Source of the DNA: a bacterium
GTDB lineage: Bacteria > Patescibacteriota > Doudnabacteria > UBA920 > VMFF01
Direction of reading: 5' to 3'
Length of the DNA stretch: 64,000 nucleotides
NCBI GenBank assembly: GCA_021811585.1
Contig: JAJZOG010000014.1
Coordinates: 2,577 to 66,576 of the forward strand
Each line of letters opens with the position of its first letter. Position 1 is the stretch's first letter. The notes below the pieces were generated by a model. It ran no database searches and was not told the origin of the DNA. It worked only from the letters and a program-made list of their open reading frames with translations. The translations under genes were made by a program, and so were the position numbers. This document shows, piece by piece, positions 1,564 to 56,270 of the stretch.

Positions 1564-1600
1564 TAGTTGGTAGGTGGTAGTTGGTAGTTGGTAGTTTATA
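1561..1600. repeat. Heptamer tandem repeat (TTGGTAG)n, copy 1 of a 3-locus family
   Basis: ttggtaggtggtagttggtagttggtag lies directly upstream of the helicase start/RBS. Confidence 0.8.
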
Positions 1601-1620
1601 GTGGAGGGTTAATAAGTGTT

Positions 1621-7262: not shown

Positions 7263-7441
7263 GGTTACTGGGGTCCAACCCAAACCCCCAACCTAAACCC
7301 CTGATCCAAACCCCCAATCTAAAACCCTAACCTAAAAAATAATGCACTTTTAAAGGACTTTTTCTTAACTTCTTCTTAAATACTTAATAAAAAACCCTGG
7401 ATTAGGGTTTTAGATTGGGGTATTAGGTTGGGGGTTTGGGT
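7263..7441. repeat. Long imperfect inverted repeat built from C-rich/G-rich heptamers, with a G4 motif on the + strand
   Basis: The 5' arm 7272-7330 (ccaaaccccc aacctaaacccc...) is mirrored by the 3' arm 7384-7441 (gggtttta gattggggtattaggttgggggtttgggttgg). Confidence 0.8.
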
Positions 7442-7450
7442 TGGACCCAT

Positions 7451-7819
7451 ATGCAAAATATTATTACTGCAAAAGTTTTAGAATGGCACAAGCATCCAAA
7501 CGCAGACCGTCTGCGAATAGTCAAAGTGGATGCGGGGCCAGAGCATGGAATTATAGAGCCGGTTGTGTGCGGCGCGACGAACTTTGATGTTGGCGATATT
7601 GTGGTTTTGGCGCTGCCCGGCGCGCACATAGCGCAAAATATTCACAGCGAAACGCACGAGCCATTTATTTTAGATAAAGCCGTAATTCGCGGCATCCAAA
7701 GTCAAGGGATGCTTTGTGCTGCCTTTGAATTGGGCCTTAGTAGCGAGCCGGAGCCGATTATTTTAGTACTCCCTTCTGGAACCCTTGTGGGTAGCGAGTT
7801 TCAGCCACAAATGGTATAA
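7451..7819 (+). CDS. Standalone tRNA-binding domain protein (PheT-N-terminal/CsaA/Trbp111-like OB fold)
   Basis: AKVLEWHKHPNADRLRIVKVDAG...VVCGATN...GDIVVLALPGA...QGMLCAAFELGL matches the tRNA_bind (EMAP/Myf) motif set. ATG at 7451. Confidence 0.75.
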   Translation: MQNIITAKVLEWHKHPNADRLRIVKVDAGPEHGIIEPVVCGATNFDVGDIVVLALPGAHIAQNIHSETHEPFILDKAVIRGIQSQGMLCAAFELGLSSEPEPIILVLPSGTLVGSEFQPQMV

Positions 7820-11580: not shown

Positions 11581-11722
11581 CAAAAATTTTGAGATTTTTG
11601 AAATTTCGCGAATTTGAAATCCCGCGAATTGAGATTTTCAAAATCCCGATTTTCAAAATCCCGAGAATTTTGAAAAGAATTTTGAAAGTCAAACTTATTA
11701 TAAAAAATTATTAAAGACAAAC

Positions 11723-14455: not shown

Positions 14456-14536
14456 TTTAAGCCGTGGAATTTTTTCTTTGGCGTCAAAAGCACAGCGCCA
14501 AAAACGCAGCGCCAAAAGCGCGGGGCAAAAACATCA

Positions 14537-16815: not shown

Positions 16816-16818
16816 AAC

Positions 16819-16920
16819 CCTCTATCAACTGCCAACTATTAACTACCAACTATTAACTACCAACTACTAACTACTATCTATCAACCTATTAACTACCAAC
16901 TACTATCTACCAACTACCAC
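16819..16920. repeat. Heptamer tandem repeat (CTACCAA / CTATCAA)n, copy 2 (inverse orientation)
   Basis: ...ctatcaactgccaactattaactaccaactattaactaccaactactaactactatctatcaacc... directly upstream of the thyX ATG. Confidence 0.8.
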
Positions 16921-16922
16921 CT

Positions 16923-18641
16923 ATGTTTACAGACGAAGAAAAAAATATTTTACAAAAATATGTAACCTCGGCCGAAGACAATGTTTTCGCGATCAAGGGT
17001 TTAAGTGGAATCGTCGGCGCGGTTTATGCGAGATATTCGCGCGCAAAAGGCGGTTTCCGCGAAACTTTGCTTAAGGAATTTGTCCAAGAGGGAAATATTG
17101 ATCCAAAGCACGCGGACGAATTGATTGCGCGCGTTTTAGTGGCTTACGGCGACGATAGCGTCGGCGAGCTTGAGGGGGCGCATGTTTCCTTTGAGAAGAT
17201 TTCAATTCTTTCGACAAAGGAAATTGAAGACCACCGCATCGGCGGATCGCCGATAGAGCAATCCACGCGCTATGTTTTTTACGATCAAAAAGACGACAGC
17301 GGCAGTTGGTTGTATTACAGAGGCGCGGAGCTTGCCGAAAATCCTAAATTCGGAAAGCAATACTTGCAAACCATGGATTTTATTTTCCAAACATACGCGG
17401 ATTTGGTTGAGCCCATGAGGAATTATTTTATGGCTTTAAAGCCCTTGGAATCGGCTGAATATGATATTAACGGCGACGGCGCCAAGGAAAAATGGTCGGA
17501 TCTTACAAATGAAAAAGACCAGAAAGCTTTTAAAATCACTTATAATGCGGATTTAAGAACAAAGGCCTGCGATACGCTGCGCGCGCTTTTGCCTCTTTCA
17601 ACTTTCACGAATGTCGGCATGTTTGGCAACGGCAGATTTTTTCAGACAGTAATTACGCATTTGCTGAGCCAGGACATGCCTGAATTCAAAGGCATAGGCG
17701 AAAAAGCGCTTGCGGCGCTTTCGGAAGTGATTCCGCAATATGTGCGCCGCGCGAAGAGGAACGAATATGATGCGGGCATAAGGCAGGCAATGTATGGGCT
17801 TGCAGGCGAGGTTTTCGGGGATGAAATTGGAAAGCCGCCCGCCTTGCCGCATTACGAACTTTTGGACAAAGGTGAGCGCTTTATAGTTCGTAAATTTGAT
17901 GAAATCCGCAAATCCAAGCCGCAGGCAGGCGAGGCCGATATTCTAACCGAGGCAATGCAGTATGCCGATGATTTGCGCGAGATGGCTAACATTATTTATC
18001 CTTTTTCGGGGCTTTCCATGAACGCATTGATGGATAAAATTTCGAAAATGAATGATGCGCAAAAAGAAAAAATCATCAAAACATATATTGGCGAACGAAA
18101 AACCAGGCGCGACCGTCCGGGGCGCGGATTGGAAAGCGGCTATGAATATAATTTTGATTTGGTCACGAACTGGGGCGTCTATAAGGATTTGATGCGCCAC
18201 AGAATAAATAGCCAACAGCGGCAATTATTTACGACCAAAATCGGTTTTTACATGCCAGAGGAATTGGTTAATGCCGGGCTTGAGGAAAAAGCGCTCGAAT
18301 GCGTGAGCAAAGCAGGCGCTTTGTACGATTTAATCGCTGAGCAGGATCGCGTTTTGGCGCAGTACGCTGTTTTGCACGGGCATTATGTGCGCTGGAGCAT
18401 GTCCTTTAATGATCGCGAAGCCATTCATATGCTGGAACTGCGTTCTACTCCGCAAGGCCACCCTAATTACCGCCTGGCGGCGCAAGCCATGCATAAATTA
18501 ATTGAGCAACGAAGCAAGTGGCGCGCGGAAATAATGAGTTTCGTTGACCATAATGATTATTATTGGTCGCGGGGAGATTCCGAGGCAAAGCAAAGGGTTA
18601 AAGAAAAAGAGTTGGACGAGCAATTTAAGCCCAAGCCCTAA
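16923..18641 (+). CDS. thyX: FAD-dependent thymidylate synthase ThyX, apparent tandem-duplicated (pseudo-dimeric) form
   Basis: Two ThyX signature-like motifs are present: DHRIGGSPIEQSTRY in the N-terminal half and MRHRINSQQRQ in the C-terminal half. At 572 aa it is about twice the canonical ThyX length. It sits in the dTMP pathway operon. Confidence 0.6.
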   Translation: MFTDEEKNILQKYVTSAEDNVFAIKGLSGIVGAVYARYSRAKGGFRETLLKEFVQEGNIDPKHADELIARVLVAYGDDSVGELEGAHVSFEKISILSTKEIEDHRIGGSPIEQSTRYVFYDQKDDSGSWLYYRGAELAENPKFGKQYLQTMDFIFQTYADLVEPMRNYFMALKPLESAEYDINGDGAKEKWSDLTNEKDQKAFKITYNADLRTKACDTLRALLPLSTFTNVGMFGNGRFFQTVITHLLSQDMPEFKGIGEKALAALSEVIPQYVRRAKRNEYDAGIRQAMYGLAGEVFGDEIGKPPALPHYELLDKGERFIVRKFDEIRKSKPQAGEADILTEAMQYADDLREMANIIYPFSGLSMNALMDKISKMNDAQKEKIIKTYIGERKTRRDRPGRGLESGYEYNFDLVTNWGVYKDLMRHRINSQQRQLFTTKIGFYMPEELVNAGLEEKALECVSKAGALYDLIAEQDRVLAQYAVLHGHYVRWSMSFNDREAIHMLELRSTPQGHPNYRLAAQAMHKLIEQRSKWRAEIMSFVDHNDYYWSRGDSEAKQRVKEKELDEQFKPKP

Positions 18642-18665: not shown

Positions 18666-19773
18666 ATGCACGAACTGCTAAAAAAGATAAAAAATTTAAT
18701 GATAGACGTTTCCGGCCTAAAGGAGCGTCTTTGAGCTTGCTGCAAAGAAAGAAAAATTAGCGCGCCTTGAGCGCGAAATGCAGGCGCCGGATTTCTGGAG
18801 CGATCAAAACGCGGCGCGGCAAAAATCCGAGGAGCATAATAATTTAAAGTCAATCGTGGATTTTTGGGATGGGCTTCAAAAGGAAATTGAAGAGCTTTTT
18901 GAAATCGCATCCCAAGCGGAAAAAGGCGCCAAAACCGGAGCTGTGTCCGGTTCTGATTTGGATTTTTTGGAGAATGCTTACAAGGCGCTTGAAAAAAAAT
19001 ATCTGGACGCGAGAATCCAGGCGTTTTTTTCCGGAAAATACGACGACCATAGCGCAATTTTGTCAGTACACGCCGGCGCCGGTGGAAGCGATGCCCAGGA
19101 CTGGGCGGAGATGCTCCTGCGCATGTACACGCGTTTTGCGGAAAGAAAAAATTTCAAAACAGAAATACTTGAAATTTCACGCGGCGCCGAAGCGGGGATA
19201 AAGAGCGCGGTAATGGAGATCCGCGGCCCAAATGCTTACGGCTATCTGAAAAGCGAAGCAGGCGTGCACCGCCTTGTCCGGCTTTCTGAATTTAACCCTG
19301 CGCATACGCGCGAAACGTCTTTTGCTCTTGTGGAGGTTTTGCCGATTTTGCATCAAGAAGAAGAGCTCAAACTTAATCCCCAGGATTTGAAAATTGAAAC
19401 ATCCACCGCATCGGGCCATGGCGGCCAAAGCGTGAATACTACGTATTCCGCGGTTCGCATCACGCACATACCCACAGGCATAAAGGTCTCAATACAAAAC
19501 GAGCGCAGCCAGCACCAGAACCGCGAGAAAGCCATGGAAATTTTGCACGCCAAATTACTCGCGCTTGAAGAGATAAGAAAACAAAAAGAAAAACAGGAAA
19601 TTCGCGGGGAATTCCACAGCCCGGAATGGGGCAACCAGATTCGCAGTTATGTTTTGCATCCGTACAAAATGGTAAAAGATCACCGCTCGGGATTCGAGAC
19701 AAGCGATCCGGAAAACGTTTTGAACGGCAATCTCGACGATTTTATTGAAAATTATTTGGAAAACAGAATATAA
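18666..19773 (+). CDS. prfB: Peptide chain release factor 2 with programmed +1 ribosomal frameshift (join 18666..18731, 18733..19773)
   Basis: ORF1 is MHELLKKIKNLMIDVSGLKERL, ending at the in-frame UGA inside AAGGAG-CGU-CUU-UGA-G. The +1 frame continues ELAAKKEKLARLEREMQAPDFW... and contains GGQ and the RF2-type C-terminus QIRSYVLHPYKMVKDHRSG. Confidence 0.9.
18720..18737 (+). promoter_or_regulatory. RF2 autoregulatory +1 frameshift site (internal SD AAGGAG, spacer CGU, slippery CUU UGA G)
   Basis: Its geometry matches E. coli prfB (AGGGGG UAU CUU UGA C). Confidence 0.85.
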
Positions 19774-20534: not shown

Positions 20535-21449
20535 ATGGAATCAATCACACTCATCAGAATAATAAAAACCAGCTGGACCAATTTTTGGAGAAATATCCTG
20601 CTTTCAACAGCAGCGACTTTGGTTATGGCCACAACGCTCACCATTCTGACAGTAACTTTCCTGATATACAGCTTAACAAACGTTACGGCGCACAGCATTC
20701 AACAGAAAGTCGATGTTAGCGCATACATGAAAAGCCAGGTTTCCGAGACCCAGATTTTGGCGGTAAAAGATGAAATTTCAAACATACCGAATGTTGAGGA
20801 AGTGCAATATATTTCAGCTGCCCAGGCACTGCAGAATTTTAAACAAAAACACGCCCAAGACCAACTTATCCAAGAATCGCTTTCAGAGCTGGATTCCAAT
20901 CCTTTGCCGGCAACTTTGGATATAAAGGCGAAAAACCTGAGTGATTATCCTGCCATTGCGCAGGCGTTAAGCGACCCGAAATATCAGCAATATATTGCCA
21001 GCGTCAATTTTGAAGATAATAGGCCTGTTATCGAAAAGCTTTCCAAGATTTTAAGGATAACCAGGGAAGCCGGGATTGCCCTTGCCATTGTTTTCGGGCT
21101 GATTGCGGTGCTTGTAATTTTTAATACCATCCGCCTGACAATTTATAATCGCAAAGAAGAAGTGGAAATTATGAAGCTGGTTGGCGCGACGAATTGGTAC
21201 ATCCGTTGGCCGTTCATAATTGAAAGCGTATTTTACGGAATTACTGCCAGCGTCATTACGCTTTTGCTCATGATTCCAGTGTTTCAGTATGCTTTGCCGA
21301 AAGTCGGCGGATACCTTGGAATTTCCGGAAGCGCGCAAAGCATTTTGCCTTTTGGAATAGGGCTCCTTTTTGTTTGGCAATTGGCAATCGCCCTGATTCT
21401 GGGGATTTTTTCGAGCTTGTTTGCCATACGAAAGTATTTGAAGGTTTAA
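20535..21449 (+). CDS. ftsX: Cell division permease FtsX
   Basis: N-terminal TM, periplasmic domain, 3 C-terminal TMs, MKLVGAT motif. Follows ftsE. Confidence 0.8.
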   Translation: MESITLIRIIKTSWTNFWRNILLSTAATLVMATTLTILTVTFLIYSLTNVTAHSIQQKVDVSAYMKSQVSETQILAVKDEISNIPNVEEVQYISAAQALQNFKQKHAQDQLIQESLSELDSNPLPATLDIKAKNLSDYPAIAQALSDPKYQQYIASVNFEDNRPVIEKLSKILRITREAGIALAIVFGLIAVLVIFNTIRLTIYNRKEEVEIMKLVGATNWYIRWPFIIESVFYGITASVITLLLMIPVFQYALPKVGGYLGISGSAQSILPFGIGLLFVWQLAIALILGIFSSLFAIRKYLKV

Positions 21450-21498
21450 GCCGCGCGGAATTTGCAAAAAAGTGGGCGCTTGGTATATAATAGAAAAG

Positions 21499-21525
21499 AG
21501 CCAACCTCTCGTTTCGGGAGGTTTT
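21499..21525 (+). terminator. Rho-independent terminator after ftsX
   Basis: ccaacctctcgtttcgggaggtttt hairpin plus T-tract. Confidence 0.6.
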
Positions 21526-21527
21526 AT

Positions 21528-21640
21528 GTTTAGTGATTGATAGTTAGTAGTTAATAGTTGATAGTTGATAGTTAATAGTTAGTAGAACTACCAACTACCA
21601 ACTACCAACTACCAACTACCAACTACCATTTACCGCCTAC
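21528..21640. repeat. Heptamer repeat locus 3: (TAGTTGA/TAGTTAA)n arm followed by (AACTACC)6 arm, forming an imperfect inverted repeat
   Basis: tagttaatagttgatagttgatagttaatagttagtag ... aactaccaactaccaactaccaactaccaactacca. The arms are complementary with G-U wobbles only when read on the minus strand. Directly upstream of rplI. Confidence 0.8.
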
Positions 21641-21648
21641 CAATTTAC

Positions 21649-22095
21649 ATGCGAATTATTTTTCTAAAAGATTGTCCCGGTCAGGGCAGAAAAGGCGAGG
21701 TCAAAGATATTAGCGACGGTTATGCTAAAAATTTTTTGATACCAAAAGGATTTGCAGTGCTCGCCACTCCTTCACTTGTTAGCAAACTGGAAAACGAAAA
21801 ACGCGCACAAGCGGAAAAAGAACGCAGAATTTTGGAAGAGCACGCGAAATTAAAGGATGAATTGGATAGGCGGACATTCACAATTGCCGTGAAAACAGGG
21901 GATAAGGATCAGATTTACGGTTCTGTCCACGAAAAAGACGTCTCAGCGGCAATAAAAGGGAAAACCGGTTATGAATTTGAAAAAAATCAGATTGTTCTTC
22001 CCGGGCACATAAAAGAACTCGGTGAATATACAATAGAAATCCGTCTCGCGGGGAATATTATTGCGCGCCCCAAAATAAAATTAATAAAAATTTAA
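21649..22095 (+). CDS. rplI: 50S ribosomal protein L9
   Basis: MRIIFLKDCPGQGRKGEVKDISDGYAKNFLIPKGFA is the L9 N-domain signature. Confidence 0.9.
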   Translation: MRIIFLKDCPGQGRKGEVKDISDGYAKNFLIPKGFAVLATPSLVSKLENEKRAQAEKERRILEEHAKLKDELDRRTFTIAVKTGDKDQIYGSVHEKDVSAAIKGKTGYEFEKNQIVLPGHIKELGEYTIEIRLAGNIIARPKIKLIKI

Positions 22096-25704: not shown

Positions 25705-25738
25705 CCTATTAGTTTTTAACCATTAACTATAAAAAAAT

Positions 25739-30124: not shown

Positions 30125-31468
30125 TTATGAATTTAAGAAATCCAGAGGATTATAGGAGTGGCCATATGGCACTTGGTATGGACCGTATTTGTTTTGGTAT
30201 TTTCCGGGCGCAATTCCAAAGCTCGAGGCGTCAAAAACGCTAAAATGCAAATGAAATCCCCGCTCAGGCCCGTAAAGAATGCGCGTCGTGTTCCCGGTGT
30301 TGCCTTCAAATCCAATTAAGTCCCCTTGTTTTACATTTTGTCCCGGCGTCACAATAAACGACATTAAATGTCCATATAAAGTAATAATCTGGCTGTTTTC
30401 TATTGCAATATTATGTTTGATTGCCACCCAATTTCCATAAGCCGCCTGCCCTGTTCCTGTCGCCTGCACCACCCCATCGGCAGCAGCATAAATTGGGCAT
30501 CCGGGCGGGCCGGCAATATCAACTCCATTATGAAAATCATAACCCAAAGCAGTGAACCCGGTGTTGCCGTATCCTTGGGTTATTATTCCTTGAAGCGGCC
30601 AAGCCAAAATGCCGCGTATGGGCGCAATGTTGCCGCCTTTTGCCATTGCTTGCTGGTTTAAATCCCCTATTTCTTGTGCGATTTCATTTTCTTCTGCTTG
30701 CGCGTTATTTAAAAGAACTTTGAATTTGTATTCCTGGCCTTTTGTGTCTGCAAGCAAGGCAACCTTTTGGGCTTTCTGGTCGCTTAAGCTCTGGTTGGCT
30801 CCTGTTAGCTGGGTTTTTAATTCGTTTAATTTTGCCAGCCGTTCGTGTAAATTTTGGTTATCGCTTTCCAGGTCAGCTTGCAATTTTTTTACGCCTATGA
30901 GAATATTATAAACTTTATTTTGAAGCGAGTGCGTGTATTGGATTTGATTGAGAAAATCCGAAAAATTGGAGGTGCCTAATTCCAGTTGAACTTGGGAGAG
31001 ATTGTCGTCTTTGTCGAGATTCACCAGCAAGTCCGCAAGCGTTTGTTTTTCCTGGGCAGCTTGCGCGGTTTTATCCGCGATTTGCTTTTGCACCGCTGCT
31101 ATTTGCAGGGCGTCATTATTTATATTTGTTTGGGTTGCCTGGAGCTGCAGTTCTGTTTCCTGCATTTCCAAATCATAAAGATTTATTTCGTTGCGCAAAT
31201 CCGCCTGCTGCTGCAATTTCTGAACCACTTGGTTTTGCAATTGGCCGATTTGTTGGTTTAATTGGCTGATCTGTGCCAGTTGTGATTGGCTGGGTTTTTT
31301 ATCTTGCGCCTGGGGTGCAATTCCCGGAAGATTTGAGCTCGCATGTAAAAAATGCCGCGGCACAACCAGGGCCGCGGTGATTCCTAAAATACAGAGAAAT
31401 AAGCTCCCTATCAAAATAAAAGAGGCGGCAGTAGAAATTTTTATTTTATTTTTGTTTCCAAACCGCAT
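30125..31468 (-). CDS. Coiled-coil M23 peptidase (EnvC/NlpD-like murein endopeptidase)
   Basis: N-terminal TM and a long Q/L-rich coiled coil. The C-terminal LytM domain has GYDFHNGVDIAG...GHLMS...GQNVKQGDLIGFEGNTG and HLHFSV. Confidence 0.8.
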   Translation of the reverse strand: MRFGNKNKIKISTAASFILIGSLFLCILGITAALVVPRHFLHASSNLPGIAPQAQDKKPSQSQLAQISQLNQQIGQLQNQVVQKLQQQADLRNEINLYDLEMQETELQLQATQTNINNDALQIAAVQKQIADKTAQAAQEKQTLADLLVNLDKDDNLSQVQLELGTSNFSDFLNQIQYTHSLQNKVYNILIGVKKLQADLESDNQNLHERLAKLNELKTQLTGANQSLSDQKAQKVALLADTKGQEYKFKVLLNNAQAEENEIAQEIGDLNQQAMAKGGNIAPIRGILAWPLQGIITQGYGNTGFTALGYDFHNGVDIAGPPGCPIYAAADGVVQATGTGQAAYGNWVAIKHNIAIENSQIITLYGHLMSFIVTPGQNVKQGDLIGFEGNTGNTTRILYGPERGFHLHFSVFDASSFGIAPGKYQNKYGPYQVPYGHSYNPLDFLNS

Positions 31469-48924: not shown

Positions 48925-49528
48925 ATAAATTTATTTTTTGAGTGGCTCGCCTTTATCTGTGGCGGCCTTTCTTTTTGCCGGCCGCATCCGGTTTTTCTGC
49001 TGCGGTTTTTCTGCTGCGGTTTTTGTATGAAGTGCACATATTCCGTGCAAACTTTTGCTTAACCTACCTAATTTCTAATTGATTTTAACAAAAAACCGGA
49101 GTTTTTACAAATGCGAATTGGACTTTTGACTTATTGCACAAAGCCGCGCGGCAGTTAATATATGGCTGATAATCGCATTTTAAAACTCTTTTGCGGGTGA
49201 ATTTTAAAACTCTTCGCAGAGAGTTTTAATTTTGCACAAGCCAAGAGTTTTAACTTTTCACCAGCAGAGAGTTTTAATTTTGCCTCTGCTATTTTTTCAA
49301 CAAATTATAGAAACTTTCAATATGGCTGTCAGTGCCGCAATAAAAAATATGCGACGTAAGGTTTACGCAATATTGCGGATTTTTATGAATGAAATTATAC
49401 TTCGGCAAAAACCAAAATAAAAAACCAAGAACCCCAAGAATAATTATATAAAAGATGTATTTTATGAGACGGAACATTTTGACTTATTATTTTAGTTTTT
49501 CGTTTTACTTATGCCGGGAGCCGCTATT

Positions 49529-51858: not shown

Positions 51859-53820
51859 TTATTCCGAAGTTATTTTGTGCGATTCCCCGGGTTTTAAAAT
51901 TTTTTTATGTTGCTGGCCGTGATTATTCCTGTCCTGAGCGCTGTTTCCCGTGCTCAAACTTTTTGCCAGGGTATTTGCCAAACCGGCGGCCAGGTTTTGT
52001 GATTTTTGCCGGTTCATTTTAGCAGCTGTTTCCCAAATGGCATTATCTTTTTTTGCCATTGGCCTGGCGGGGTGGTTCGCAAAATGGTTTCCAGAATGGT
52101 TATTTGAATGCATGTTCCTGGTTTGGCCGGTATTATTTTTGCCGTAGGAATTGTGCGGCTGGGGGCTGCGCGCATTATGTGTTTGGAAATTATTCGGCCG
52201 GGGATTGTATTGGGAATTATATTGCCGGGATGCATGCGGTTCGATGTTTTCGTATTTTGTTTTTTGCGCTTCCTTTGGTTCCCGGCCAGGTTCCTTTGTT
52301 TCCTTGTCTGCTTCTGTATTTGTTTTTTTGCCTGCTGTATTCGTTTCCCAGTCTGGTGCTGCGTTCGATTGTTGTGCCGCCATATTTTGCGCCGCACTGC
52401 TGGAGACCGTTTTTTCCATTTCAGCCGGCGCTTGTGGCGCAACCGCTGTTTCCACTTCTTCTTCGCCCTCCTGGCGCGCGCCGCTGGCAATTACAGCGGC
52501 TTGTTCGTGATATTCCTGCCCCATCCAGCGCAATATTTTATCTTCAACTTCAGCAACGGGATTTGCATATCTTTCCCGTGAGATGCGAATTACTTTGTCC
52601 GTATTGGCTATTTTTCTGTGGGTTTCCGGCGCCAAGGTTGTGGCCGTAAAAGGGTCGGAAGCCACGCCGTTAATCATTAATTTTAGAATGATGTGATGTT
52701 TGGGCAGATTCACCAGATCGTTTTCCGTAAATTGCGGCGCAAATTCTTTTTCTAAAAATTCCGAATCAGCCGCGCCCACGCGAAAAGTGACGATTGTCCC
52801 GACGTTGCCGAAAACCGCGTCGCGCACTTTTGTGCTTCTGCCGTCGCTGCCTGTGAGCTGGCCGATATATTGATGCCCGATTGTGAGGTTCAGGCGGTAT
52901 TTGCGCGCCTCGGAAAGTATTGTGGCAAATGATTCCGTGGCAAAATTTTGGAATTCGTCGACGTACAAAAAGAAATCGTGGCGTTCCTGCTCGCTGATAT
53001 CGACGCGCGAAAGCGCGGCCAGCTGGAGCTTGGTGATAAGCATGGCGCCGAGCAAATCGGAATTGTCCTCGCCGATGCGCCCTTTGGCAAGATTCATTAA
53101 GATTATTTTTTTGTTGTCCATGAGCGAACGCAAATCAATGGTGCTTTTCGGCTGGCCGACAATGTTGCGTATAATTCCAGATGAAAGGAATTGCCCGACT
53201 TTATTTTGGATTGGCGCAATGGATTCCATGCGGTATTTTTCGTTCCAATTCGCGAATTCATCCACCCAGAAGGATTTGACCATCGGGTCTTTGATATTGT
53301 CGACAATCCGTTTGCGGTATTTTTTGTCTATCAGCATTCGGGAAATTCCGAGCAGGGTGTTGCCGGGAGAATCCAAAAGCGCGAGTATGGCGTTATTTAA
53401 GATATATTCCATGCGCGCGGACCATAAATTAGCCCAAATTTTTGTGAACACGCCCATAAGCCCCGAAGCAACCAGATGCTTGTAATTCGGGTCAACCGCT
53501 TCCAAAATATTAAAAGCAATCGGAAATTCCCTGTCAGCGGGATTGAAATAAACCACGTCGTTCACGCGGCTTGAAGGCACGTAATCCAAAATTTTCTCAA
53601 CTGAATCCCCGTGCGGATCCACAAACGCCAAGCCGTTGCCGTTCGCTATGTCTTGGATAATCATGTTTTCCATGAGCGTTGTTTTGCCCATGCCGGTTTT
53701 TCCGATGATATACATGTGCCGGCGCCGGTCTTCGCGCTTTATGCCAAACGGCACTTCCTTGTGGCGGAAGTTTGTCTTGGCGAAAATTGTGATGTCGTTG
53801 TTATCCTGTTCTGCGTCCAT
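51859..53820 (-). CDS. TraD/TrwB/VirD4-type coupling-protein-like P-loop ATPase lacking N-terminal TM segments, with long disordered Q/N/K-rich C-terminal tail
   Basis: Walker A IIGKTGMGKTT; LAFVDPHGDS, YFNPADRE and FNILEA blocks, in spacing, match F-TraD/TrwB. Walker B-like FFLYVDEFQNF. Residues ~430-653 are low complexity. Confidence 0.6.
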   Translation of the reverse strand: MDAEQDNNDITIFAKTNFRHKEVPFGIKREDRRRHMYIIGKTGMGKTTLMENMIIQDIANGNGLAFVDPHGDSVEKILDYVPSSRVNDVVYFNPADREFPIAFNILEAVDPNYKHLVASGLMGVFTKIWANLWSARMEYILNNAILALLDSPGNTLLGISRMLIDKKYRKRIVDNIKDPMVKSFWVDEFANWNEKYRMESIAPIQNKVGQFLSSGIIRNIVGQPKSTIDLRSLMDNKKIILMNLAKGRIGEDNSDLLGAMLITKLQLAALSRVDISEQERHDFFLYVDEFQNFATESFATILSEARKYRLNLTIGHQYIGQLTGSDGRSTKVRDAVFGNVGTIVTFRVGAADSEFLEKEFAPQFTENDLVNLPKHHIILKLMINGVASDPFTATTLAPETHRKIANTDKVIRISRERYANPVAEVEDKILRWMGQEYHEQAAVIASGARQEGEEEVETAVAPQAPAEMEKTVSSSAAQNMAAQQSNAAPDWETNTAGKKTNTEADKETKEPGREPKEAQKTKYENIEPHASRQYNSQYNPRPNNFQTHNARSPQPHNSYGKNNTGQTRNMHSNNHSGNHFANHPARPMAKKDNAIWETAAKMNRQKSQNLAAGLANTLAKSLSTGNSAQDRNNHGQQHKKILKPGESHKITSE

Positions 53821-55145: not shown

Positions 55146-56270
55146 TTACTTTCCCGCCAAAGCGTATTTGTTTTTGTTTACTTTGGTGAACAATTTTCTA
55201 TTCGAAAGCGCGGCCAGCACGGTGTTTCTCTTTACCAGCCGTTTTTTAAGCACGGCATCTATAATCTGGTCGCGGTTAAGAGGCTCTTTTGCCGTTTTGA
55301 GGATCTCTGCAATAACATCAGCGACAATGCCTTTTTGATAGCCCCATTCAGTGAGGGCGTAAATTCCCCTGCCAACCAGGACAAAACGCGGGTCTTTTAT
55401 GAGTTCATTATGGACTGTTTCTTTGTGCGCCACTCGCTTATCAAAGCCGTATTTATTTATAAGCTCCGTGATGGCGGAATAATGTTCCGGCTTTTTGTGG
55501 TGCTTCATGACAACATAGGCCTTATCGCCAACATCGCGTGGCTTAATTTCCTGCCAATTTGCCAGGCCGTATTCCTCGAACGGATTTTTCTCTATTTCCC
55601 TACTGAGGTTTAAATAAGTGCGCAGGACTTTTTCATTTACCTGCATTTCATTATCGCGATAAATATCCGTCTGCTTCAGTTTCTCTATAAGCTCCAATTC
55701 ATGCACCGGCTTTCCTTCTTTTTTCAAAATGCCCTTCGCAGTTTCTATAATATTTTTGAAAAATTCGTGGTTGTAATTTACGGAAGCCCAGGCATTGTGC
55801 ATGAACTCGTTTTCTTTCACTTCCAAAAGCTCTTCCGCAATATTAAGCAGGAAGAGGATGGAGCGCCGCTCTTCTTCGGTTGCTTCGGAGCTGAGCATTT
55901 TTATAAGCTCCATTTCTTTTATAATTTTTCCGCAATCCGAAATTATGCTCACCAATATTTTAATGGCTTCGGCAAGCTCGTGGTCAGCCAATTGCGCGCG
56001 CAAAAATTTAAGCGATTCTTTTTCTATTTGGCGGACGCGTTCGCGCGTTAGCCCGTGCTCCTTGCCTATTGCTTCCAATGTTTTTGCCGTAAAACCAAGC
56101 AATCCGAAACGTTTTGCGAGGATCATTTTATCCCGTTCTTTGAGTAAATCCAGTATTTTGCCGGCAGCCAGTGTTGGTTCGAAATTTTGCAATGAAACGC
56201 TGTGTTGCGCATTTATGATCTTATCCAGGATGCCCGGAATTTGCTTATTGTTTCCGTCAGTTTTTTCCAT
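55146..56270 (-). CDS. Sigma-70 region-4-type HTH protein with C-terminal winged-helix-like domain (putative DNA-binding/regulatory protein)
   Basis: DKMILAKRFGLLGFTAKTLEAIGKEHGLTRERVRQIEKESLKFLR matches sigma-70 region 4.2. There are no regions 2/3, so it is not a complete sigma factor. Confidence 0.5.
   Translation of the reverse strand: MEKTDGNNKQIPGILDKIINAQHSVSLQNFEPTLAAGKILDLLKERDKMILAKRFGLLGFTAKTLEAIGKEHGLTRERVRQIEKESLKFLRAQLADHELAEAIKILVSIISDCGKIIKEMELIKMLSSEATEEERRSILFLLNIAEELLEVKENEFMHNAWASVNYNHEFFKNIIETAKGILKKEGKPVHELELIEKLKQTDIYRDNEMQVNEKVLRTYLNLSREIEKNPFEEYGLANWQEIKPRDVGDKAYVVMKHHKKPEHYSAITELINKYGFDKRVAHKETVHNELIKDPRFVLVGRGIYALTEWGYQKGIVADVIAEILKTAKEPLNRDQIIDAVLKKRLVKRNTVLAALSNRKLFTKVNKNKYALAGK

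Follow-up and report, generated by a model that had tools for sequence, protein, structure and literature searches.

Tandem repeats of a 7-nucleotide (nt) unit have been described in several bacterial groups, and the closest known system to the one treated here is that of the TAACTGA repeats of marine Beggiatoaceae, Cyanobacteria and Bacteroidetes (MacGregor 2015, PMC4679880). These repeats occur as scores to hundreds of sets per genome, most of which end 1 to a few nt before start codons that have no ribosome-binding site, including those of ribosomal protein genes (PMC4679880). In this report we describe a pair of opposed heptamer arrays located between ftsX and rplI in a 64,000-nt stretch of DNA (the window) from a bacterium of the Patescibacteriota lineage Doudnabacteria (assembly GCA_021811585.1, contig JAJZOG010000014.1). 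In our favoured reading, to which we assign a probability of about 0.6, the element consists of two abutting, opposed TAGTTRR simple-repeat arrays that arose by lineage-specific expansion, and the long hairpin that they can form, together with its G·U pattern, is a by-product.

The resemblance to the TAACTGA repeats is seen at several levels. In both cases tandem 7-nt units are found, with a single heptamer dominating the genome and recurring at several sites (three loci in the 64 kb of the window); the arrays end near a start codon, in a fixed orientation and with no ribosome-binding site in between; and ribosomal protein operons are among their locations. A rare inverted pair has been reported for the TAACTGA repeats as well. 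Each has a stop-rich strand opposite an open one, both contain the AACT core in the same orientation toward the start (TTAACTA/TAACTAT here), and the phyletic spread overlaps that of the survey reported below, among the matches listed. There are also differences. The units of the window are CCAACTA, TTAACTA, CTAACTA and TCAACTA, and with only the AACT core in common the present repeat is not a strict member of that family; the host is a Patescibacteria (Candidate Phyla Radiation, CPR) genome; the arrays comprise 6-14 units, whereas MacGregor's repeats have mostly 2-6; the strand facing the start is stop-rich in MacGregor's repeats but stop-free and G-free here; and the locus at rplI is a tight inverted pair with a helix of ~45-55 bp.

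Heptamer simple repeats in general are over-represented in bacterial intergenic DNA, and polymerase slippage has been proposed as their source (Mrazek 2007, as cited in PMC4692102). The short tandemly repeated repetitive (STRR) and heptameric repeats (Mazel 1990 and Mrazek 2007, both as cited in PMC4692102) are similarly dispersed and intergenic, with lineage-specific units and with differences in length and sequence between close relatives; their unit sequences differ from ours, and the account given of them in PMC4692102 describes no orientation rule relative to starts and stops. The GGGAATC and GGGGAYT repeats of Xanthomonas and Nostoc (Rehm et al. 2015, PMC4692102) are also intergenic and lie near gene ends, and some form inverted pairs, which could adopt stem-loops or cruciforms and which vary between close species. 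They form G-quadruplexes (PMC4692102), a mechanism that is inapplicable to TAGTTRR/YYAACTA, which has no G-runs. Nostoc heptamer repeats near start codons or promoters are reported to have regulatory effects, the mechanism of which is unresolved (bioRxiv 10.1101/2022.06.06.494920). The arrays of the window share three properties of the intergenic heptanucleotide/STRR-type class, namely at least three tandem copies, dispersed non-coding loci and rapid turnover. To our knowledge there is no CPR example of heptamer arrays of the cyanobacterial STRR type, and a literature search, which was not exhaustive, yielded no description of such arrays in CPR bacteria or of the start/stop orientation rule reported below.

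Heptamer arrays of the window and the hairpin at rplI

TAGTTRR is the dominant heptanucleotide simple-sequence repeat of the window and hosts arrays at three loci, all of them intergenic and non-coding. The two-unit family pattern TAGTTRRTAGTTRR has 26 matches in the window, compared to 0.08 expected by chance, and 25 of these lie within 1564-1602, 16822-16923 and 21541-21625 (loci 1, 2 and 3, respectively), the exception being a match with one mismatch at 25716. The initial annotation had presented the site upstream of rplI as locus 3 of a heptamer family, made up of two imperfectly complementary arms, and in this it was correct: the sequence is as it described, and both arrays were found by Tandem Repeats Finder (TRF). 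By the TRF count, the period-7 array of locus 1 has 4.7 copies, that of locus 2 has 14.4, and the two of locus 3 have 6.6 and 8.3; a period of 21 was reported at 21537-21580 (three units make 21 bp, about two helical turns). The features of the three loci are listed below.

1564..1605, + strand: locus 1, TAGTTGG-type units, beginning right after the stop codon of a PIN-domain gene
16822-16922 (junction 16816..16922), + strand: locus 2, ~14 units (CTACCAA, CTATTAA, CTACTAA and others), in the opposite orientation to locus 1
21462..21491, + strand: promoter-like -35 TTGCAA, 18 nt, -10 TATAAT of the rplI(-pyrG) unit (consensus scan, 10/12 match)
21492..21530, + strand: conserved rplI leader, consisting of AGAAAAGAGCC, an A-tract, the hairpin CCTCTCG-TTT-CGGGAGG (21503-21523) and a U-tract
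21527-21540, + strand: degenerate units of arm A (TGTTTAG, TGATTGA), 5' of its core
21541-21585, + strand: core of arm A, TAGTTAG, TAGTTAA, TAGTTGA, TAGTTGA, TAGTTAA, TAGTTAG and TAG, that is, TAGTTRR x6 plus TAG
21586-21627, + strand: core of arm B, (AACTACC)x6, perfect copies; reverse complement of TAGTTGG
21628-21648, + strand: outer degenerate units of arm B (ATTTACC, GCCTACC, AATTTAC), reaching the rplI ATG at 21649
21649..22095, + strand: rplI, ribosomal protein L9 (Pfam Ribosomal_L9_N/C), with pyrG 17 nt downstream

Locus 3 lies in the gene order tmk, thyX, prfB, ftsE, ftsX, rplI, pyrG, and its arrays occupy part of the spacer between the end of ftsX (21449) and the start of rplI (21649). 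The + strand of arm A (21527-21585) is stop-rich and contains no C in 58 nt; arm B with its degenerate tail has a single G in 63 nt, and this tail runs to the rplI ATG with no Shine-Dalgarno sequence. The two arms differ in composition, arm B being a homogeneous GG expansion and arm A containing AA, GA and AG units only. The six perfect copies of arm B suggest, as far as can be told from the sequence, a recent homogeneous expansion, and units become more degenerate toward the outer ends of the arrays. Neither of the other loci has a partner arm. Locus 1 is followed by a GGAGG Shine-Dalgarno sequence and then by the ATG of a UvrD-like helicase at 1621. Locus 2 is an array of a single orientation that fills the whole tmk-thyX junction and abuts the thyX ATG, with no Shine-Dalgarno sequence; its sense strand contains a single G over 107 nt, with 85% of the array predicted unpaired, and it mixes GG, AA, AG and GA at unit positions 6-7.

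Folding of both RNA strands, a check proposed in the initial annotation, gave minimum free energies far below those of shuffled sequences for each of them, the minus strand being the stronger. The + strand RNA of locus 3 folds at -38.5 kcal/mol (z -6.8, 44 pairs) and the - strand RNA at -61.6 kcal/mol (z -11.8, 55 pairs including 10 G·U), with no internal loops in the core of the latter; the value for single-stranded DNA is -18.7 kcal/mol (z -5.6). Pair counts are those of the minimum-free-energy folds, in which the arms, which abut in the sequence, are separated by a 5-nt loop. The strand asymmetry to which the initial annotation drew attention is therefore real, but its statement that the compensation works on one strand only went too far, as the + strand also folds strongly.

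The origin of the asymmetry can be traced to the composition of the units. When a TAGTTRR arm is paired with the complement of TAGTTGG, only G-C or A·C can occur on the + strand and only G-C or G·U on the - strand, and the one-strand G·U pattern follows from the family having any purine at unit positions 6-7 and from arm B being pure GG. Since the same mixture of purines is present in the unpaired locus 2, the ten wobbles amount to one difference in composition between two arrays, and not to ten compensations. Which of the strands is favoured by the G·U pattern is a coin flip. In the inverted pairs of other taxa (five to six; L033, L052, L055, L073, L123) the mismatches are not transitions, and no wobble pattern is seen.

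Homologous rplI loci and the conserved leader

The DNA of the window matches ENA ERZ27237454 contig k141_107112, and for several homologues of its L9 protein the source label is Patescibacteria or Candidatus Doudnabacteria. Ten homologous rplI loci were recovered; their RplI proteins are at most 69% identical, and a search of 5.8 billion clustered proteins gave none closer. In 0/10 of these loci are heptamers present between the leader and the rplI ATG, and no TAGTTnn tandem of two or more units was found in ~65 kb from seven relatives, versus 5 arrays in the 64-kb window. The distance from the -10 box to the rplI ATG is 63-77 nt in 8/10 relatives, the other two being L196 (93 nt) and L128 (150 nt), compared to 163 nt in the window, where the extra ~100 nt of leader are entirely heptamer-derived. 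Similarly, the tmk-thyX gap consists of 107 nt of repeat in the window and of 1-10 nt in the relatives, with a conserved thyX start, ATGTTTACAGA. Presence, length and sequence of the arrays are not kept at the orthologous rplI and thyX junctions. Judged by this comparison, the arrays are lineage-specific expansions into formerly short junctions. As the array is missing from every rplI homologue, there is no covariation to assess. The fallback offered by the initial annotation, that the heptamer array itself is the unit, is favoured by the repeat anatomy, by the excess of family matches and by the absence from relatives.

The same comparison exposed a conserved block upstream of rplI in 10/10 relatives (L002 9896-9975, L003 8290-8355, L004 9895-9975, L125, L126, L128, L140, L158, L177 and L196). 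It comprises CTTGMG-N17-TATAAT/TATACT, AGAAAAGAGCC, which is invariant, an A-tract, CCUCUC-loop-GAGAGG and a U-tract. In single-sequence folds the hairpin reaches -10 to -15 kcal/mol in all 10 relatives; its loop is freely variable, and the innermost pair alternates between G-C and C-G. In the window, the ftsX stop (21449) is followed first by the promoter-like site and then by the hairpin at 21503-21523. The latter had been labelled the ftsX terminator, a label that should be abandoned, as the hairpin is downstream of the conserved promoter and stays with rplI in relatives, and thus belongs to the rplI leader. Relative L004 carries an inserted gene downstream of ftsX, the latter having a terminator of its own, and there too the promoter/leader block remains with rplI. 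A conserved promoter and leader upstream place the heptamer array within the probable 5' untranslated region (UTR) of rplI(-pyrG), and we infer from the sequence that the arrays are transcribed inside it.

The leader itself matched no Rfam family, and could act as an attenuator or a 5' stabiliser. In B. subtilis, pyrG is controlled by a CTP-sensing attenuator (PMC7039003), with which the present leader has in common a pyrimidine-rich 5' arm and the downstream position of pyrG; the initially transcribed sequence differs. A metagenome scan for the leader pattern GAAAAGAGCC..CCTCTC..GAGG returned 115 matches in 113 stretches, of which 111 were chance matches and 4 true leaders. A mini-open reading frame, ATG TTT AGT GAT TGA (MFSD*, 21527-21541), begins 4 nt past the GGGAGG that forms the 3' arm of the leader hairpin and could be read as its Shine-Dalgarno sequence. 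It is not conserved among the relatives, its stop overlaps the first degenerate heptamers, and it is probably fortuitous.

Array orientation in other phyla and alternative explanations

The distribution of the repeat was surveyed in one genome per species with a pattern of TAGTTRR x3.7, and the results apply to this pattern only. At least 120 array-bearing stretches were found, in Cyanobacteria, Bacteroidota, Ignavibacteria, Parcubacteria, Patescibacteria and others. The following counts are among the matches listed. Within 15 nt of an array, the ATG of an open reading frame (ORF) of at least 150 aa was preceded by the nnAACTA sense in 15 cases and by the TAGTTnn sense in 0 (p 6e-5); within 30 nt, the numbers were 25 and 5. 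Conversely, arrays that start at most 15 nt past the stop of a long ORF were TAGTT-sense in 26 cases and AACTA-sense in 4, a test that is partly biased, TAGTT arrays bringing their own stop codons. Inverted pairs within 150 nt were TAGTT-first in 5 cases and AACTA-first in none, and two further TAGTT-first pairs are those of Parcubacteria L052 (recognised by eye) and of locus 3 of the window. Pfam domains were found in 17/20 of the downstream ORFs tested, mostly beginning within the first ~10 residues, which makes the start-codon calls credible. The downstream genes include atpG (in two cyanobacterial genera), nusA, ftsX, asd, recG and msrA, with no functional theme.

Among the matches listed, these results describe an orientation rule: the nnAACTA strand is the sense strand leading into starts, the TAGTTnn strand is that found after stops, and inverted pairs are TAGTT-first. 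All three loci of the window fit it: locus 1 follows a stop in the TAGTT sense, locus 2 leads up to the thyX ATG in the AACTA sense, and locus 3 is TAGTT-first with the AACTA arm on the side of the rplI ATG. Two individual cases of the survey may be added. nnAACTA arrays lie 17-18 nt upstream of atpG in a Coleofasciculaceae metagenome-assembled genome (L019 3329-3377) and in Chroococcidiopsis FACHB-1243 (L043 1027-1074), with differing unit variants, CTAACTA and CCAACTA, respectively; their sequences suggest either persistence or recurrent seeding at an orthologous operon junction. In Lepagella muris (L033 3700-3880), an inverted heptamer pair with a small separate hairpin at its centre lies between divergent genes, each of which has an AACTA-sense arm upstream of its own start codon.

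A simple scenario would account for both the expansion and its orientation. The arrays would have grown, most likely via replication slippage, between the conserved leader hairpin and the rplI start codon, and their orientation would have been filtered by what gene ends tolerate. The TAGTTnn strand, having stop codons in all frames, would be safe after a gene; the nnAACUA strand, having no G, would be free of AUG, GUG and UUG, of purine runs resembling Shine-Dalgarno sequences and of self-structure, and would thus be safe before a start codon and possibly useful as a standby site. Two arrays growing in one spacer would face each other TAGTT-first and would automatically be able to pair. The (AACUACC)n tract would be compatible with Shine-Dalgarno-independent initiation, the norm in this genome, and may provide such a standby site at rplI. 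The tobacco mosaic virus omega leader and CA multimers are likewise G-free, C/A-rich unstructured repeats 5' of an AUG that support initiation of this kind; they are viral or synthetic and not genomic simple repeats. Use of Shine-Dalgarno sequences is rare in this genome, most starts being preceded by A/T-rich, G-depleted sequence (43% A and 16% G in regions -30 to -1 of the gene starts in the window). A TATAAT-like box is seen 6-11 nt before many ATGs (e.g. 30125-31468, 34382, 51859-53820, 55146-56270), a proximity which suggests that leaderless mRNAs are frequent. In the mRNA, arm A would pair with arm B, and the last ~21 nt and the AUG would be about as accessible as without arm A: in the predicted rplI leader arm B is 20% unpaired, and the accessibility of the AUG region is 0.53 with arm A versus 0.57 without it. 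Given this near equality, strong regulation by the hairpin is not predicted.

Several points weigh against reading the element as two slippage-grown arrays. There is no direct evidence of copy-number variation; other assemblies with an identical RplI and ThyX do exist. That one heptamer family occupies three loci within 64 kb points to selection or to sequence-specific dispersal, for which slippage alone is insufficient. The recurrence of inverted pairs among phyla that are not related might be due to selection for a hairpin and not to two independent arrays. Arm A adjoins the leader hairpin and not the ftsX stop, so that the stop-side half of the orientation rule is not obviously applicable to it. 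To the bias of the stop-codon test should be added that the survey consists of the listed matches of a pattern-defined set and that its ORF calls were mechanical.

One alternative, which we regard as unlikely though deserving of attention, is that the pair forms a sense cis-regulatory hairpin in the rplI(-pyrG) 5' UTR, which would sequester the (AACUACC)n tract as a ribosome-loading site or stabilise the mRNA; its A·C mismatches would make the stem meltable, for instance by temperature or by S1, a cold-shock protein or L9. The fold of the + strand, the low unpaired fraction of arm B in the full predicted leader and the position downstream of a conserved promoter and leader, where transcription is probable, are consistent with it, as are the inverted pairs with an AACTA arm beside the ATG that recur in L052, L123, L033 and L055; translational regulation was also proposed by MacGregor for the TAACTGA repeats (PMC4679880). 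It is opposed by the absence of the element from all ten homologous loci, the AUG accessibility that hardly changes when arm A is removed, the lack of a partner arm at loci 1 and 2, and arm compositions that resemble independent expansions. A broader proposal, distinctly unlikely in our estimate, is that YYAACUA arrays are a widespread module for Shine-Dalgarno-independent initiation or regulation, recognised by a trans-acting factor (S1, a cold-shock protein or an unknown RNA-binding protein), with the TAGTTRR arm at rplI serving as an anti-enhancer. If it were true, its hosts would be phyla largely without Shine-Dalgarno sequences, including the CPR; the mismatched hairpin at rplI would be switchable and would tune L9/PyrG output; and the orientation rule would be the footprint of a function and not of mere tolerance. 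The structured antisense RNA suggested by the initial annotation, in which a minus-strand transcript would form a near-perfect ~55 bp helix with G·U pairs and act as a small RNA or as an antisense to the rplI leader, is not supported, and we consider it highly improbable. In its favour are the stability and the ten G·U pairs of the minus-strand fold, a weak promoter-like site on that strand (21684-21655), and the leader hairpin with its upstream A-tract, which could terminate leftward transcription. However, the G·U asymmetry is explained by purine degeneracy together with a pure-GG arm, the structure is not conserved in relatives (0/10 homologous loci), and other inverted pairs of the repeat do not have the wobble pattern. 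The promoter-like site, the only one on the minus strand, matches 9/12 positions, and the 6 sites of the region do not clearly exceed the number in shuffled sequences (mean 2.7 ± 2.0). There is also no real match to an Rfam family: at the gathering threshold the whole window yielded one tRNA only, and a permissive scan of 21400-21720 yielded generic microRNA-precursor-like hairpins only, far below threshold.

Other explanations are at the level of DNA. The arrays might constitute a multi-site platform for protein binding, or a cruciform that affects transcription or replication, and the occurrence of one genome-specific heptamer at three loci, the fold of the single-stranded DNA and the 21-bp period of three units, about two helical turns, would agree with this. 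Heptad arrays that bind proteins are known, and include the TTTTGAT heptads of the ctxAB promoter and the heptameric direct repeats of SARP/LAL regulators (bioRxiv 10.1101/2021.05.14.444153, 10.1101/2022.06.06.494920). Nevertheless, such a function is very unlikely here: the arrays are located downstream of a conserved promoter (locus 3) or inside an operon junction (locus 2) and not upstream of promoters, the orientation rule follows start and stop codons, which are landmarks of the mRNA, and no candidate binding protein was identified. The palindromic architecture and the insertion relative to relatives also recall a miniature inverted-repeat transposable element (MITE) or a repetitive extragenic palindromic (REP) element, inserted upstream of rplI with the heptamer arrays as its terminal inverted repeats. 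This possibility is barely credible, for the arms adjoin directly, with a loop of 5 nt and no unique sequence inside, no target-site duplication was noted on reading the flanks, the other two loci have a single orientation and differing lengths, no full-length copies are repeated, and the outer units are the more degenerate ones, as expected of arrays that grow in place.

Four further candidates were rejected. The heptamer stem is not an intrinsic terminator, being A/U-rich and having no U-tract on either strand, and the terminator scan flagged 21503-21523 alone. The units have GG at most and no runs of three or more G, which rejects a G-quadruplex repeat; no features supporting iterons or an origin were found, and there are no spacers as in a CRISPR-like array.

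Other repeats of the window and implications

The spacers of this genome are generally repeat-rich. A second low-complexity inverted repeat occupies 7264-7447, with arms ~65 nt apart: a C-rich arm (7264-7336) with units of the CCAACCC, AAACCCC and CCTAAAC types, and a G-rich arm (7400-7447) with runs of GGG to GGGGG, a possible G-quadruplex, which abuts the ATG at 7451 of a gene with a tRNA-binding domain. A similar CCCTAAC/CCCCAAAC array lies beside heptamers in Parcubacteria L053 (900-940). The dcd-dut junction, 81 nt long in the window versus 1-27 nt in relatives L002-L004, has likewise been expanded by a repeat just upstream of a start codon, being filled by a degenerate 14-mer array (GCGCCAAAAACGCA x3.8) at 14481-14532. 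Short tandem repeats with 9-24-nt units are clustered in or near gaps between the mechanically called ORFs at 11583-11687, 48989-49024 and 49216-49283; among them is a 24-mer x2.8 within a 664-nt gap near tRNA-Gln. Further, in the region 18666-18780, prfB carries at about 18722-18737 the AGGAGCGT CTT TGA G site of classic programmed +1 frameshifting, which explains the apparent 136-nt gap before its 331-aa ORF.

The G·U pattern confined to one strand at rplI is a consequence of unit composition and not evidence of an RNA gene, and a false lead is removed. The more useful by-products of the analysis are the cross-phylum orientation rule and the conserved rplI leader. Heptamer arrays close to start codons, previously known from Beggiatoaceae, Cyanobacteria, Bacteroidetes and Xanthomonas, are hereby extended to Patescibacteria, with such examples of growth as a ~100-nt repeat that splits the formerly tight tmk-thyX junction and a repeat that doubles the rplI leader. 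If the orientation rule is functional, it bears on the recruitment of ribosomes in bacteria with few Shine-Dalgarno sequences; if it is a matter of tolerance, it would mean that selection shapes where simple repeats grow in compact genomes.

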